Assembly (NCBI GenBank): GCA_965279515.1 | Contig: CBDIID010000003.1 | Location: forward strand, 480,001-544,000 | DNA from: Turneriella sp. | GTDB taxonomy: Bacteria; Spirochaetota; Leptospiria; Turneriellales; Turneriellaceae | DNA: 64,000 nucleotides | Direction of reading: 5' to 3' | In this document: in pieces, positions 2,123 through 23,693 of the stretch | Layout: every line of letters starts with the position of its first letter | How positions within the stretch are numbered: the first letter of the stretch is position 1 | The notes under the pieces: generated by a model | Told to the model about the DNA's origin: nothing | Database searches by the model: none | Seen by the model: the letters and a program-made list of their open reading frames with translations, nothing else | Program-made: the position numbers and the translations under genes

Positions 2123-2920
2123 TCAAAAATTACTGATCAGAAGCTCTTTTGCGTCCGTTGATCCCTTGCCAGAAACCGTATACTTCGTCGAAACTTCAAC
2201 CATTTTGAAGCCTGCAAAAGCCTTCCGAATCGGTTGAACATCGTTGATTGAGAGCAGGAATTTGCCCTTGATCGTCGCCAAAAGTGTCGCCATTTTGCCG
2301 AAGTCGGCTCGCGAAAACATGCCTTTGCCGTAGTCATTCTCGCCAAAATAATAAGGCGGATCGATGTAGAAAAGCGTTGTTGTGCGATCGTAACGACGGA
2401 TGAAATCATCGTAGCAAAGGCACTCGATAACCACACCAGAAAGCCGCGTGTGCAGCTCTTCAAGAATCGGGCCGAGCTTCGTGATATCAAACCGCCCTGA
2501 TGCGCCTGGCGTCACGCCGAAACTGCGGCCGGCAACTTTGCCGCCGAACGATGTCCGCTGCAGGTAAATGAACTTGGCAGCCTTCTCCAGATCGGTCAGC
2601 GTATCAGACCGCGTCTTGCACAGCCGCTCGAATTCAGGTCGTGAAGTGATCTGGAATTTCAGCATGTCCAGAAAGGCAACATAGTGTCGCTGCAGCACGC
2701 GGAATAGATTCGCGACCTCGAGGTTGAAGTCGTTGATGACCTCGGACTTCGGTGAAGACTGCCGGCGCAGAAAGATGCCACCCATACCGACGAATGGCTC
2801 AGCATAGGTCGTATGCTTCAACGCGTCGATGATTGGAATGATCACCTTTGCCAGCTGGCGTTTACCGCCCAGGTATGGTGCGGCGGGTTTTGTGGGTTTG
2901 ATCGGTCTTTTGATAGGCAT
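2123..2920 (-). CDS. Dam-like (D12 class) N6-adenine DNA methyltransferase
   Basis: PYLGGK, YAEPFVGMGGIF, INDFN and catalytic DPPY motifs. Confidence 0.92.
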   Translation of the reverse strand: MPIKRPIKPTKPAAPYLGGKRQLAKVIIPIIDALKHTTYAEPFVGMGGIFLRRQSSPKSEVINDFNLEVANLFRVLQRHYVAFLDMLKFQITSRPEFERLCKTRSDTLTDLEKAAKFIYLQRTSFGGKVAGRSFGVTPGASGRFDITKLGPILEELHTRLSGVVIECLCYDDFIRRYDRTTTLFYIDPPYYFGENDYGKGMFSRADFGKMATLLATIKGKFLLSINDVQPIRKAFAGFKMVEVSTKYTVSGKGSTDAKELLISNF

Positions 2921-18640: not shown

Positions 18641-19357
18641 GTTCGTTTCCTCCTGAGCGTGTAGTTCTTCATTTTTTGATACGTTGTTTTCTGCCGAAGA
18701 ATCTTCGGCCGGTTGAAACCAGTGGCGTGCCAGGCGTTGCTTGGCGTTCGGGTCGCCGCCCTGGTATACGAGAGAGAACTCGTCGTAGCTGGTGATCTCG
18801 GTGACGTCGATCGTCACGAGTTTGTTGTCAACTTCGGCGCCGAGCTTGTACCAGAAATTTTCTAGATCGGGATGAGACTTCTGGAATTTAAAGCGAATGC
18901 CTACAGATCCGCTGTGGATTGCCGGCGGTCTCATTTTCAAACCGGCGGCGATGCGGGGGCTTACTATTTTGTCGATCTTCAACTCAACGTCGATACCGTT
19001 GGGCTCTTCAGTTTCAGACCAGATCGATTCACTGACAACGCCGAGCCACTGGTTCACGTCGCGGTCGTGGTTGGGGTAAACGGTTTGGTGCAAGAGTAGC
19101 TTTACACTTTTTTTGAGAACATCACCGAGCGAGAAGTTCAGCCAGTAGCCAGGGATCACGACTTTAGAAAGAGCACGGAAGCGAGGATAGATATAATTCT
19201 CGTCTTCCTTCATCTCCGTCGGCGCACCTTCGGCGGGTGCGAGCAACTTCGCGGCGCTGTTTATGCAGACGCCTTCGAAGCTGTTCTTGCGCAGCATTAC
19301 GGTGAGCTCGCCGTCGACGAGCGTGACCATGTTACCTTTGCTTTTCATTCTTATCAT
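18197..19357 (-). CDS. Prohead protease with C-terminal scaffold
   Basis: NHDRDV..LG and HSGSVG protease-like motifs; coiled-coil C-terminus. Confidence 0.75.
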   Translation of the reverse strand: MIRMKSKGNMVTLVDGELTVMLRKNSFEGVCINSAAKLLAPAEGAPTEMKEDENYIYPRFRALSKVVIPGYWLNFSLGDVLKKSVKLLLHQTVYPNHDRDVNQWLGVVSESIWSETEEPNGIDVELKIDKIVSPRIAAGLKMRPPAIHSGSVGIRFKFQKSHPDLENFWYKLGAEVDNKLVTIDVTEITSYDEFSLVYQGGDPNAKQRLARHWFQPAEDSSAENNVSKNEELHAQEETNVKLKKQFCEKLGMKTEGLFAKGVEEVEISQAQFDALMADVSRVNEALTQEIAELKPKAELGEQHEKALRDDAEKFYRLCAGEGKASEEIIKSLQTAPIETVKALAADYKTRADQLHPANDRQSSVTTEGNQQSASSSDDDVENFQIK

Positions 19358-20439
19358 GTGAGATCCTCAAAGTCTGCCGTTGCGGCGTTGGGTATGTTGC
19401 GGATGAAGGATGTGCCTTCGGGGTAGATCTTGAACTTCACGCCTTCGAGGCTGCGCTCAAGCGTGATCTCGAAATAACCGAACTCGTCGCTGATGACGCT
19501 GCGCGGGTGTGGCAACAGGCTGATGCCTTTGGTGGCCACGACCTGAATCTCGCGGCCTGGAAGCGGATCGCCGGTACCGTCTTTCAGATAACCGGAGACG
19601 ACGCAGATCTGCGGATCGGCGAGCGAAGGTGCGGCGACCGCAGCGTTGAGCGTGCACGAAGTGATCGTCGGCCGCGCGGTACCGTCGAGCGAGCGCAGCA
19701 CGATGCCGATGCGCACCCACGACTTTTGCGCGAGCGGCGGCAGATCGGTGAGCGCCGACGCCTGATCATAGCTGCGGTCTGAATTTACCCAGGCGCCGCC
19801 ATCGTAAAATTTCGCGACACCGTCGATAATCCAGAAGTAGCGGATGCCGGTTTGCGCCGGAGCGCTCACCGACTGCAGCAGCTCTTCGGCTTCAGTGATC
19901 AGCACCGGCGGTGTGAGCAGGTAGAGATTCGCGTCGTCGTAGTATTGCACCGGGCCGTTCAGCTCGAAGCGAATGATCTGCACCGTGTCGGCAGAATCAG
20001 TGAGCACGAGTTTGACGTAGCGGTAACGAACCGCGGTGAACGATTGGTTGATGTCGTCTTCGACATCGGGGATGTTGACGATCTCGTCGAAGTCTATACC
20101 GTCTTCTGAGAGATAAAGAATCGCCGACGCGGGCAATCCGCCTAACGCGAAGTCGAGTTTGAGACGGTTCAGCCATAACAGGCGACCGAGATCGATTTCG
20201 ATTTCGTGAGGCCCCGACACAACCGTAGACCAGTACGTCGCGGCGTCGCCATCGACCATGTGCGATGCCGGGTGATCGGCGTGTGCCGAAGTTGCCTCGA
20301 TAGATTTATTTAAAGCGAGATCGGTGCTCGTGTTCGCGAGCTCTTTGATGCGCGCGACTGCGGACGCAATTTCTACGCGCTCCGCATTAAAGCGAAACTC
20401 GTTAGAGCGGTCGAAAAGGTATGTGTGTCGTACTGACAT
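19354..20439 (-). CDS. Discoidin (F5/8 type C) domain protein with C-terminal beta-sandwich
   Basis: DLALNK..ATS, VDGDAATYWST, IEIDLG, SEDG, RYVKL motifs; C-terminal VSGYLKDGTGDPL..SDEFGYFEI. Confidence 0.75.
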   Translation of the reverse strand: MSVRHTYLFDRSNEFRFNAERVEIASAVARIKELANTSTDLALNKSIEATSAHADHPASHMVDGDAATYWSTVVSGPHEIEIDLGRLLWLNRLKLDFALGGLPASAILYLSEDGIDFDEIVNIPDVEDDINQSFTAVRYRYVKLVLTDSADTVQIIRFELNGPVQYYDDANLYLLTPPVLITEAEELLQSVSAPAQTGIRYFWIIDGVAKFYDGGAWVNSDRSYDQASALTDLPPLAQKSWVRIGIVLRSLDGTARPTITSCTLNAAVAAPSLADPQICVVSGYLKDGTGDPLPGREIQVVATKGISLLPHPRSVISDEFGYFEITLERSLEGVKFKIYPEGTSFIRNIPNAATADFEDLT

Positions 20440-20677
20440 TTTTTAATGCCACGTACGGTGATCAGACAGGTAGCAAGCGCGCTATTCCCGAGGTTTTGTG
20501 TTTTTTATGGTCTCGGGATTATGTCTCATGTTTAGAAAACTTTTTGGGCGCCTCTCAGAGGGCAAAAGCGCCGTTGATTTTCGTTGCGAAACGCGAAGTC
20601 GGGGGTTTCTGCTCCCCAGGAATGACACCCGGCTTAAAATGGCTAGAAATGCCCTTTGCGGGGATGAGTAAATCCGC

Positions 20678-20980
20678 TTATTGGTAGTAGAGTTCGCGGG
20701 CCAAGTCTCTGACATGCACCGGTAACTCTTCGAGCGGGTATTCGCCGCGCGCGATGCGGGCGAACTCGTTTCTCCAGGTGCGCGGTGTGCCACCGGTGAG
20801 AAGCCCCTCGAAATTCTTGCGGGCGAAGGTGCCGAGGTGCTGCACGAAGTAAGCGTCGAGAAATTTACTCTCGTCTTCGTTCATCTCGACCAGGTTCATG
20901 TCGAACTCTTCGCCCTGCAGCTGATCGCGGTTCACCAACTCGAAGTCGTTGACGAGTGTCTGCTCGCGCGCTTCGGTCAT
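20678..20980 (-). CDS. Putative immunity protein for the MuF toxin
   Basis: 100-aa acidic ORF coupled by ATGA to the MuF-toxin stop. Confidence 0.55.
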   Translation of the reverse strand: MTEAREQTLVNDFELVNRDQLQGEEFDMNLVEMNEDESKFLDAYFVQHLGTFARKNFEGLLTGGTPRTWRNEFARIARGEYPLEELPVHVRDLARELYYQ

Positions 20981-22401
20981 GGTACAACCTCGACATAAGT
21001 GTCTTCGTACTCGGCGAAGTTCTTTTTCTTAGGCCTGAACGAAGTGGCGATGCTCGACGACTTATCGTCGACCACGACCGCGAGATTCTCTTTCGTCTGG
21101 TAGAACATGGTTCTTGCTGCGCCCTTGTTATAGTAGACGAACAGTCGATCATAGTCGGTCAATACTTTTTTGGCCAGCGCCGCATAAGCCTTCGCGTTCT
21201 TCGGAGCGTCCGCTCCGGTGAACTCGTCCTTGTGCTTATCGAAGTGCGAGGCCAGCGCTTCGGGCTGTCCCCAGTCTGCGCCCTGGAAGGCGTTGATCTT
21301 CGAGGCGAACTCGCTCGGGTTCAGATCGTGAAAATCCTGCCAGCGCAGAAATGCTTGCTGGCGTTTGATCTGCCCCGTGGCTTCGTCGACCGTCGTGGCT
21401 TCGGGCATCTTCGGCTGCGTGAGTTCTTTTCCCGTGCGGGTCAAGATGCGCTCTTCGCGTCCGACGACCACCGTCGTGCGGCACCGTCCATGGTAAGGCG
21501 GCATGCGGCACGCGAGTGAAGCGATCACCTGCGGCGTCTTGCCTTGCGGCACCGTCTTCGGCCAGGGAAATTTTGACACGACGTCGGATGGCTCTGTGTC
21601 CAGGACATCCTGCACAAATTCGGCCATCGTTTCTACCCGTACTCTGCGGCCATTCATCTCGCGGCAAATTGCCGAAGTCTTCTGGTCGAGAATCGCGACG
21701 ATCTCCAGCTCTTGAAAGCCGAGCTCTTGCATCGACAGCACCTGCGAAAAGTTGCGCGCCTTGTTCACCGCGTTCGAGACAACCAGGCGGTAACGGCTCT
21801 GCGCTTCGTCTTCACCCAAAACCTTGCCGGCAGCTTTCGCTGCGGCGATGGCTTTGTCGCGAATCTCTTTCGCCGATGTACCTTTACCTTCGAGCTCGTC
21901 GAGCACGGCCTGCCGCATCTCGTCGCGGAAGTCGTTATAGACAGCGCCGTAGTCGTAACCCTGCGCCGCCTCGAACCACTTCATCGCTTTCGGCAGCTGC
22001 TGCGTCGCGGTTTTCTGCGCGGGCTTTACCCCGCTCGTCGCACCATCGACCCAGGCGTTGCGGATGTGATCGCGCACCGCGGCGGAAACCTCCGCCGGGA
22101 GTGTGTCTCTCATCTCGCCGTCGAGCCAGTCGAGTGCGGAATCGGCATCGCCTTTTGCAAGACGATCTTCGAGCCCGCGCACGATGCGCTCGACTTCTAC
22201 CTTGTACTGACCCAGCATCGCCGATTGAGCCGCGGCATCTTGCGCCGCAGCCTTCTCGGCTTCTTTGCGTTTCGTAACGTTGTCAATCGCCGGCTTGCCG
22301 TCCTCTGACGGTTTGCCGGTTTTGGCTAATCTGCTTTCCGGAAGGGAATCAGATTCGTGCCCCGTGCAGCCTTCGTGGTCGCACGGTGAAGTATTGCGGT
22401 C
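20977..22401 (-). CDS. MuF (phage head morphogenesis) domain with C-terminal predicted toxin; start uncertain (frameshift from portal at 22401, or ATG at 22218)
   Basis: MuF motifs AILDQKTSAICREMNG and MPPYHGRCRT; extension HFDKHKDEF...IATSFRP. Confidence 0.8.
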   Translation of the reverse strand, partial: DRNTSPCDHEGCTGHESDSLPESRLAKTGKPSEDGKPAIDNVTKRKEAEKAAAQDAAAQSAMLGQYKVEVERIVRGLEDRLAKGDADSALDWLDGEMRDTLPAEVSAAVRDHIRNAWVDGATSGVKPAQKTATQQLPKAMKWFEAAQGYDYGAVYNDFRDEMRQAVLDELEGKGTSAKEIRDKAIAAAKAAGKVLGEDEAQSRYRLVVSNAVNKARNFSQVLSMQELGFQELEIVAILDQKTSAICREMNGRRVRVETMAEFVQDVLDTEPSDVVSKFPWPKTVPQGKTPQVIASLACRMPPYHGRCRTTVVVGREERILTRTGKELTQPKMPEATTVDEATGQIKRQQAFLRWQDFHDLNPSEFASKINAFQGADWGQPEALASHFDKHKDEFTGADAPKNAKAYAALAKKVLTDYDRLFVYYNKGAARTMFYQTKENLAVVVDDKSSSIATSFRPKKKNFAEYEDTYVEVVP

Positions 22402-23693
22402 TTTTTTTTTAGCGCGCGCATCGTTGCTGCGGTCGCCTTTGTGCCGGTGGCCTTCTCGTAGCCGGCCTCGCGCGCGGCTTCGTCGGCAGAGATCCATCCG
22501 GCATCTTGTTTGAGCAGTATATTCAGCAGCTCAAAATTCTTAGCTTGCGCATCGGCAGCCGGGTCGAGCGAGCGCGATGGGTTGAATGTTACGGTGACTG
22601 CCTTTACGCGGAAACCTTTGAGCACCAGGTGCAGCCAATACACTTTCTCAAGGAAGCGTTTCAAAACGCGCTGACGCCCACGCAGTTTTGAAAGGAAACT
22701 CTCGTAGACGACGCCTGCATAGGTTTCGGTTGTTGAGTAACTGCGGCCGAGGAGCGACGGGTCCATGTCGATGCCAGAGGCGAGCTGCTCTTCACCGATC
22801 TGGAACAGATCAGCAGCACCGCGCGCGTCGCCGGTTACGCTTTTATGATCGATCGTGACGTCGTCGTAGCTGACGGCAACGCCTGACTTGGCAAAGTTTT
22901 CACGGAAGGATTTCGCAAAGTCCTCGAGATTCTTTTTAAGGCGGGCGGTGTATTCCCGCGGCGCTTCGTTATTGTTCGGCGCCGGTTTCTTCTTGGCATG
23001 GACGAACCCGAGCAGGCCGATTTTCCTGATGACTTCTTTGATGCGGTCGATGAAATCCTTTTGCGATTTTGCCGTATCGAGCGCGGCTATGAACGGGGGA
23101 ATTCCGTACGGGCTTTTCTCGTCGCGCTGCAGCGGAATATACATGTACTGATGTTCGTTGAGTTCGACATCCTCGCCGATGCCCGTTTGGAAAGGAGCCC
23201 AGTCGCCGCGGTCATTGCGTTTGAAGCGAACTTCTTTCACCGGCACGAGCTCGACTTTGCGAATGCCAGAGAAGTCGCCTTCTGGAATCGCCTCAGCAGA
23301 AAGCGCGCCGCGGATTGTTACCTGGCGGAGAATAGCATCGACGAGGGAATCGATTCCGGCAGCCGGCTTGAAAGCTGTCTTTGCAAAATCCTTGAGCTCT
23401 TCGCGCGCCTTTACCGATTCGGCTTCAGAGAGGCCCTCGAAAGAGACCTGGTGTCCGGTATTCGCAAAGCTGATCGTACGCTCCACGGCCTGCGACAGAT
23501 CTGGCGTAGAAAGAACGAGCTTCTCTATTTCGTCTACGAGCTCGAACGGTACCGGCGGCGTCACAGAATCGAGCAGTTCACTGCGTTTGCGCTCTGGCGT
23601 CAGCTCGCGCTCCGACGGAATATCTACCGCAAAGGCTTGCTGCGCCGGCTCTTTGCGGCCGCGAGAGAATATATTTCCGAGGAAGCGAAACAT
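22326..23693 (-). CDS. Portal protein
   Basis: 455 aa after terminase; PYGIPPF and GWISADEAARE motifs. Confidence 0.85.
   Translation of the reverse strand: MFRFLGNIFSRGRKEPAQQAFAVDIPSERELTPERKRSELLDSVTPPVPFELVDEIEKLVLSTPDLSQAVERTISFANTGHQVSFEGLSEAESVKAREELKDFAKTAFKPAAGIDSLVDAILRQVTIRGALSAEAIPEGDFSGIRKVELVPVKEVRFKRNDRGDWAPFQTGIGEDVELNEHQYMYIPLQRDEKSPYGIPPFIAALDTAKSQKDFIDRIKEVIRKIGLLGFVHAKKKPAPNNNEAPREYTARLKKNLEDFAKSFRENFAKSGVAVSYDDVTIDHKSVTGDARGAADLFQIGEEQLASGIDMDPSLLGRSYSTTETYAGVVYESFLSKLRGRQRVLKRFLEKVYWLHLVLKGFRVKAVTVTFNPSRSLDPAADAQAKNFELLNILLKQDAGWISADEAAREAGYEKATGTKATAATMRALKKKTAILHRATTKAARGTNLIPFRKAD

Follow-up and report, generated by a model that had tools for sequence, protein, structure and literature searches.

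A Mu-like prophage and its head module

The window (the whole 64-kb stretch of DNA analysed here) contains a 37.1-kb transposable prophage of the Mu type, whose ends read TG...CA and whose 6-bp target repeat is GAGGGA; scars of 6 bp have been reported for transposable prophages of Leptospira in the accessible text of PMC8705779. The prophage encodes a transposase, MuB-like and Gam-like proteins, a repressor, and head and contractile-tail proteins. Alternative candidate ends were also found (2103-39021). Its head module comprises the genes for the terminases, the portal, a MuF protein, a small ORF, a discoidin-domain protein, a protease and the capsid. The features concerned are:

2054-39163 (no strand assigned): Mu-like transposable prophage
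20440-20677 (no strand assigned): non-coding gap at the prophage centre (midpoint 20608), 3' of the probable immunity gene
20678-20980 (minus strand): probable immunity protein, 100 aa, all-alpha and acidic, with an ATGA overlap with the toxin stop
20977-21363 (minus strand): toxin tip, whose fold, profile and conserved residues predict an RNase domain of the colicin D-like BECR type; H40/K43/H44, R84 and T107 are the candidate active-site residues (numbering of the 128-aa tip, 21363-20980)
21472-22218 (minus strand): MuF helical region and MuF core, ending PPYHGRCRTT, with matches to PF04233, PHROG 9907 and BFVD minor capsid proteins
22219-22401 (minus strand): linker in the -1 frame, start-less, with a Cys/His-rich stretch followed by the first helix of the MuF region
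22402-22410 (minus strand): putative A9 slip site, CTA AAA AAA AAG in the portal frame, containing the heptamers A_AAA_AAA and A_AAA_AAG
22326-23693 (minus strand): portal gene, 455 aa (PHROG 3753 portal, E 4e-103), its last ~25 codons lying after the slip site

No cultured phage was found whose portal is more than 31% identical to that of the window. A single-protein scan of viral contigs gave no match, and all matches in an ESM Atlas search were below 0.8.

Several other elements of the prophage deserve mention. According to the available text of PMC8705779, the strong gyrase site of phage Mu is at its centre; at the place that matches the central gap of the window, several relatives have gaps of 200-270 nt. 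A 361-aa F5/8 type C (discoidin) gene (19354-20439, minus strand), whose product is perhaps a head decoration or adhesion protein, is flanked by the immunity gene and the head protease gene, here as well as in L093 and L096. The tail module ends with a DNA methyltransferase gene (2123-2920, minus strand), a position that we take to match that of mom in Mu. In the genome G000, the chromosome is accompanied by two small contigs, of 38,023 nt (C1) and 19,790 nt (C2), neither of which matched the prophage in blastn. A further contig of 23,613 nt, present at much higher depth in the sequencing runs X1, X3 and X4, shares two pieces with the window (22158-22181 and 22458-22478); these sit 2,294 nt apart in that contig and reflect either chance or a related element.

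The portal–MuF junction

At the 3' end of the portal gene, the portal and MuF frames overlap by 205 nt, with the MuF frame at -1 and the A9 run inside the overlap. This run is the sole A/T run of at least nine in the window, and 89 such runs occur in the 4.9 Mb of the genome. The MuF frame is more than a chance reading, since its core matches PHROG 9907 ("minor head and DNA pilot", E 2e-41) and PF04233 (E 6e-6; at 27.3 bits it just misses the cut-off of 29.6); PF04233 is also matched in five of seven close MuF homologues. The first ATG of this frame (22218) is located 61 codons past the run and is preceded by a Shine-Dalgarno (SD) duplex of only -1.7 kcal/mol; the equivalent ATG in L093 and L096 likewise has no SD, and in L088 the first start in the MuF frame comes 198 codons past the run. 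In the 96 nt before ATG 22218, the changes seen in three relatives are distributed 5/5/12 over codon positions 1/2/3 of the MuF frame, which is coding-type conservation upstream of that start. Furthermore, natural single-ORF fusions of 883-908 aa can be aligned, over their linker and first helix, with the -1 frame after the A9 run, and the portal-linker-MuF-toxin product predicted in the window would measure ~905 aa. The initial annotation was thus incomplete, as it had missed the slip site, which falls beyond its coordinates, and had not seen that MuF has no good start. Very probably, the product that bears the toxin is a recoded portal-MuF-RNase fusion and not a free-standing MuF protein.

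The conservation of this arrangement was followed in 172 portal-family loci (80 viral, 11 genomic, 80 metagenomic and the window). Counts rest on the 123 loci with a MuF hit, the 49 without one having been left out, and P0010, a repeat artefact, was excluded from all alignments. Among these 123 loci, 86 are single ORFs, 30 are split in the -1 direction, and seven are split in the +1 direction and carry no run. The -1 group consists of 25 loci with A9-10, two with A7 in the context A_AAA_AAG, and three (L101, L133 and L147) in which an ordinary ATGA overlap explains the -1 relation; a -1 overlap alone is therefore not proof of recoding.

The toxin tip of the window is present in 30 loci, of which 24 are split in the -1 direction with A9-10 and none in the +1 direction; another five have A10 at this place within a single ORF, and the last lacks a run. 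Hence, a conserved A/T run of at least nine occupies the portal-MuF junction in 29 of 30 cases. The tip-bearing L006 is a plain fusion without the run, and L011 and L090 have the run and no tip. Six further loci were found via the tip: all six have A10 and the partner gene, and the -1 relation holds in five (the remaining one cannot be judged). In the 20 split loci of the first set, an X_XXY_YYZ heptamer always occurs in the upstream frame. Toxin-less relatives are mostly plain fusions without the run. In the nine run-bearing single-ORF loci, stops in both other frames arrive earlier than in the background (P 0.016 and 0.005, for loci that are kin).

These counts bear on an alternative in which the toxin-immunity pair is real and the MuF-toxin is mainly a separate protein of ~413 aa translated from ATG 22218, with the A run giving a minor fusion at most. 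Gene callers do report MuF proteins of 404-414 aa for the seven closest homologues, an ordinary ATGA overlap exists in three relatives, and in four of the 19 split loci an in-frame MuF start is preceded by an SD duplex at least as strong as -7 kcal/mol. We nevertheless consider such a protein an unlikely main product, because of the missing SD at 22218 and its equivalents, the coding-type conservation upstream of it, the distant first start of L088, and the retention of the run in nearly all tip loci.

In L101 and L133, which belong to a second tip-bearing clade, the portal ends with CTG GAG CAA AAA TGA, with an SD and the ATGA overlap. The separate start of these two loci represents the same uncoupling of portal and MuF, and L102 and L156, of the same clade, use A9.

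A second alternative explains the split by phase variation at the DNA level or by a homopolymer assembly error, the true gene being a plain fusion subject to slipped-strand switching. The five tip loci that are single ORFs with A10 agree with this idea, as does the fact that rare variants are dropped in contigs. We judge it highly improbable: the 24 split tip loci come from many assemblies and are all -1, with runs of nine or ten in differing phases, and an A10 identical in phase is found both in L033, which is split, and in L085, which is a single ORF. In addition, the A9 of the window is repeated without an indel in contigs of the runs X1, X3 and X4, which represent two samples of one study and are possibly the window's own source, and in a diverged relative from X5 the junction shows a difference of 3 nt with the frame kept; together, these contigs make an assembly error unlikely.

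With regard to the recoding mechanism, no conserved hairpin or SD stimulator was found near the run in 19 split loci (hairpin searches and mononucleotide shuffles). In the window, the 60 nt on the 3' side have a structure z of 0.0 and the upstream duplex is +0.3 kcal/mol; a 3' structure z of -2 or lower is seen in only five of the 19 split loci, both A7 loci among them. The base next to the run also varies among loci. Since run length is conserved and neither the next base nor the 3' structure is, the extra base at A9 would most likely be gained by RNA polymerase slippage. Ribosomal -1 shifting may add to this, given the A_AAA_AAG heptamer, the single tRNA-Lys(UUU) of the host genome and the 3' hairpin signal of the A7 loci.

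The origin of the slip sites was also considered. When loci were clustered at 90% portal identity, A9 or longer was found in 23 of 30 tip-bearing clusters versus five of 54 tip-less ones. In a quick portal tree, built from 116 loci in 84 clusters once MuF-less loci, truncated ones and portal fragments below 250 aa had been removed, the tips are concentrated in two clades, and on the five independent pairs the association between tip and run gives sign-test p values of 1 (A9 or longer) and 0.25 (any uncoupling). That slip sites arose together with toxin tips is accordingly not established, with only five independent pairs and no significant link.

The predicted toxin tip and its partner

Past the MuF motif PPYHGRCRTT (21501-21472, minus strand), the frame continues for 164 aa to the stop at 20977, in agreement with the extension of ~160 aa described initially. 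The sequence motifs quoted at that time are all on the minus strand (HFDKH at 21246-21232, IATSF at 21051-21037), except that FRPK had been given as the end of the protein; 17 residues follow it, so it lies near the end and not at it. In an AlphaFold2 model of MuF and tip, pLDDT is ~90 over the tip, which is composed of a pre-helix, a helix and a four-stranded sheet. Foldseek and VIA-align agree on the best structural match, CdiA-CT O32:H37 (8ey4_A), with colicin D next. For 8ey4_A, Z is 8.1 (rmsd 2.4, 84 aligned residues) and the Foldseek probability is 1.00 (E 0.012); for colicin D, Z is 7.7 (rmsd 2.3, 88 aligned). These scores are modest, a Z of 8.1 being only at the edge of the range for unrelated folds and the Foldseek E-values exceeding 0.001.

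Sequence comparison points in the same direction. Phmmer with the tip alone found no relative in the PDB; a profile of 23 tip relatives matches 8ey4_A by sequence (E 0.0028) and aligns the H..KH..EF motif and the Thr of strand 4, from which residue equivalence between the two proteins is deduced. Of 25 tips, 23 have H44 and 22 have T or S at position 107. According to the accessible portions of PMC5512222 and of a bioRxiv preprint (10.64898/2026.08.28.747851), colicin D-like BECR RNases have an active-site layout of His and Ser/Thr. Pfam, where Colicin D and PBECR1-5 were considered, assigns no family to the window tip; among 25 tip members, it detects PBECR3 in one (E 2e-4) and PBECR2 weakly in another. 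The resemblance to colicin D-like RNase tips noted in the initial annotation is thus upheld by the fold, the H..KH..EF motif and the profile match. The modelled colicin D-like BECR RNase fold of the tip is supported, and the tip would accordingly be expected to act as an RNase.

The tip shares several traits with both CdiA-CT O32:H37 and the colicin D tRNase, namely the fold, the H..KH..EF helix and the strand-4 Thr, and differs from them in its ~24% identity, its extra N-terminal helices and its portal-MuF carrier. The colicin-like BECR group is described in the same preprint, and a need for EF-Tu has been reported for O32:H37 (10.64898/2026.09.18.752725, accessible text). In a search of 401 genomes of the phylum, the tip family was found in 14, with 16 matches, two of which (L192 and L194) end Rhs-like proteins and are followed by other downstream genes. 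The His is replaced in the tips of L092, L190 and L191. In L190, L191 and L195, which are prophages in genomes of the same class, A10, the -1 layout and the partner are kept and the tip has KR instead of KH; such tips are possibly inactive or re-wired.

The small ORF coupled to the tip, described initially as acidic and of 100 aa, is as reported: it extends from 20980 to 20678 with an ATGA overlap and contains 20 D+E versus 11 K+R. It also has its own SD, GAGGT, 7 nt before the ATG. The protein belongs to PHROG 9741, annotated as of unknown function, and has a conserved C-terminal end, W..I..G.YPLE.LP.HVR..A..LYY. Two fold searches gave a best Z of 5.7, with no clear match and none among solved immunity proteins. 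Upstream of the gene, one promoter-like site was found where 0.5 is expected, which is within chance. The gene itself is part of the late head operon, and the immunity of lysogens proposed in the initial annotation is so far unsupported.

Homologues of the MuF-toxin and of the partner are conserved in the same order. Of the 30 tip loci, 28 have the partner behind the tip (28 of the 28 testable, the other two being cut by a contig end), whereas it follows none of the 93 MuF proteins without this tip; the tip and partner profiles were derived from 18-25 of the loci later counted, and L001-L004 were left out of one partner count as own, duplicate or portal-less sequences. Two isolated occurrences were also seen. 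In L004 (648-1345, genome G003), an orphan 134-aa tip and its partner, without MuF or portal, adjoin a DEAD-box helicase gene, and in L180 (genome G004) a second tip end and partner lie at the start of a contig.

Prediction of the complex between tip and partner, which had been proposed as a check of the pair, came out in its favour, with a score of 0.68 versus 0.01 for the best control. This mark is attained by 116 of 157 solved complexes and by two of 215 mismatched pairs, and can be lifted by likeness to solved toxin-immunity complexes. Contact agreement between runs was at least 52% and partner pLDDT at least 77, with one of the three runs scoring 0.23. In the model, D12, E24 and E25 of the partner contact H40, K43, R84 and T107 of the tip; this would put acidic residues into the predicted active site, an arrangement to be expected if the immunity protein acts by plugging it.

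The tip is also exchangeable. HExxH peptidase-like tips, each with a small Cys-rich partner, are carried by the same portal family in L005, L097 and L122. A third tip type is present in L101, L102, L116, L133 and L156, three of which have their own partner, and presumably it is PBECR-like. In L138, a tip of 370 aa is followed by its own downstream gene, and many MuF proteins of this portal family have no tip. Tip and partner diverge faster than the portal and MuF core (in L007, for example, identities are 50% for the portal, 55% for the MuF core and 28% for the tip), and the closest relatives all retain the present tip, at 70-83% identity. The tip is therefore not invariant: BECR, HExxH and third-type tips are swapped on one carrier family, each with a downstream gene, as the word polymorphic in the initial annotation implied.

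The general traits of MuF polymorphic toxins (Jamet et al., 2017; PMC5576092, in its accessible text) are a MuF gene right past the portal gene of a temperate phage, a variable C-terminal toxin common to other toxin systems, and a small downstream ORF of less than 150 aa. Here, MuF is N-terminal to the tip and its gene lies directly past the portal in a prophage, homologues of the tip are found in other toxin systems (8ey4_A and the Rhs-like L192 and L194), and a small predicted cognate ORF follows directly. Relatives with other tip/partner pairs place the locus among the MuF polymorphic toxin-immunity pairs, a class that it fits on fold, motif, gene pairing, variability and complex model. The tip and its 100-aa partner are in all likelihood a toxin-immunity pair.

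Another reading gives the tip a role as an RNase or RNA-binding module in the phage's own programme (lysis-lysogeny choice, or cleavage of mRNA or defence RNAs), with the partner tuning it, instead of a weapon against competitors. Such a role has been proposed for phage BECR domains (PMC5512222) and a part in the lysogeny decision is allowed by PMC5576092, in both cases in the text available; moreover, a kill of translation at entry harms the phage itself, and some relatives have lost the His. We regard it as improbable, since among solved structures the nearest is that of a CDI toxin, Rhs-like proteins can end in the same tip, the dedicated partner is always present and the two also form an orphan cassette in L004.

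A proposed recoded carrier for a virion toxin

In the mechanism that we propose, most transcripts (or ribosomes) would reach the portal stop and give the 455-aa portal, and a fraction would gain one base at A9 and give the portal-linker-MuF-RNase protein. The partner, translated right behind the toxin, would bind the RNase pocket and protect the virion-producing cell. The portal is the ring by which phage DNA passes into and out of the head; some of its subunits would then hold the MuF-toxin at this exit, within the head. From there, the toxin would probably be cut free and enter the next cell with the DNA, where it would cleave RNA, tRNA being the likeliest class, and stall translation. No cleavage site for its release from the portal was identified. 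Of this scheme, the layout of the sequence, the conserved run and frame, the fold, the strict pairing of the genes and the exchange of tips are direct observations, from which slippage and its mechanism, binding, RNase activity, packaging, release and delivery are inferred. Given a toxin-immunity pair and a recoded fusion, delivery of the toxin by the virion is likely, and for the explanation as a whole, that is a MuF toxin-immunity pair whose toxin is reached by recoding and carried on the portal, the balance of the evidence is modestly in favour.

The covalent tie to the portal, which would hinder ejection unless it is cut, also suits a different function, that of a toxin-antitoxin-like maintenance or abortive module acting in the producer or lysogen, with a portal-bound toxin that is never delivered; the orphan cassette without MuF in L004 agrees with it. 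This is quite improbable, as the tip can be reached only via late-gene expression and MuF proteins are known portal-bound head components (SPP1 gp7; PMC5576092, accessible text).

If the virion toxin is indeed made from the recoded portal, slippage could be a dosing device: as an optional covalent extension of the portal, it would ensure that only some subunits bring an RNase to the DNA exit. As the link between tip and run is not significant on five independent pairs, we put this idea forward as a hypothesis, and a rather doubtful one. If true, it would mean that a need to ration the toxin is what preserves the slip site, and that tips (RNase, peptidase-like and others) are swapped together with their immunity genes on a recoded carrier.

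Several elements of the system are already known, namely MuF toxins, portal-MuF single-gene fusions (PMC7302621) and portal/MuF-PBECR fusions (PMC5512222), the latter two described in the available portions of these articles. As in these fusions, which may or may not include a BECR domain, portal and MuF can form one chain here; whereas the known fusions are constitutive, the putative slip site of the window would make the extension optional, so that one gene would give two portal forms. The MuF toxins of PMC5576092, in its accessible part, are stand-alone genes mostly of siphophages of Firmicutes; in contrast, the present case concerns a Mu-like phage of a spirochaete, with a contractile tail and a toxin that would be reached by slippage from the portal. 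Neither "frameshift" nor "Spirochaet" occurs in the main text of PMC5576092. The transposable prophages of Leptospiraceae (PMC8705779, available text) are another of the closest known systems; "frameshift" and "toxin" have no occurrence in the main text of that article.

The closest parallel in recoding is the tau/gamma slippage of dnaX, in which, according to the accessible text of PMC5009743 and PMC3711429, a run of A9-10 also provides two subunit lengths for one oligomer. The two states of dnaX described there are a single ORF in Thermus thermophilus and a two-ORF form in Chlorobi, with nearby stops in both other frames in the Thermus gene (PMC5009743). Both dnaX and, as predicted, portal-MuF either make the long product by default, with stops nearby, or make it only after a slip. 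They differ in that the oligomer would here be a phage portal and the optional part a toxin. The word "portal" does not occur in PMC3711429 (one supplement lay outside the search) or in the first 300,000 characters of PMC5009743. In the open literature, no paper on portal-MuF recoding was found; an earlier report may exist in subscription papers. What would be new here is a polymorphic toxin system on a recoded portal carrier.

The packaging and delivery of MuF toxins has been a standing question since 2017. If one slip site ties the toxin to the portal, it offers a clean test, as the run would set the dose and can be interrupted with the portal protein untouched, and the junction peptide would be a unique marker in virions. 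The portal-MuF pair would also join the short list of recoded phage structural genes, and portal-MuF-toxin proteins would be truncated in databases. For phages of spirochaetes, the system would further contribute one new family of RNase tips and one of immunity proteins, although a toxin-immunity pair by itself would be an ordinary addition to its class.

The linker itself has one further trait: its Cys/His-rich stretch (~22340-22400 of the window, minus strand, MuF frame), directly past the slip site, is possibly a metal site. A Cys/His-rich portal-MuF linker recurs in many relatives, split or fused (L011, L014, L090, L097 and L131).
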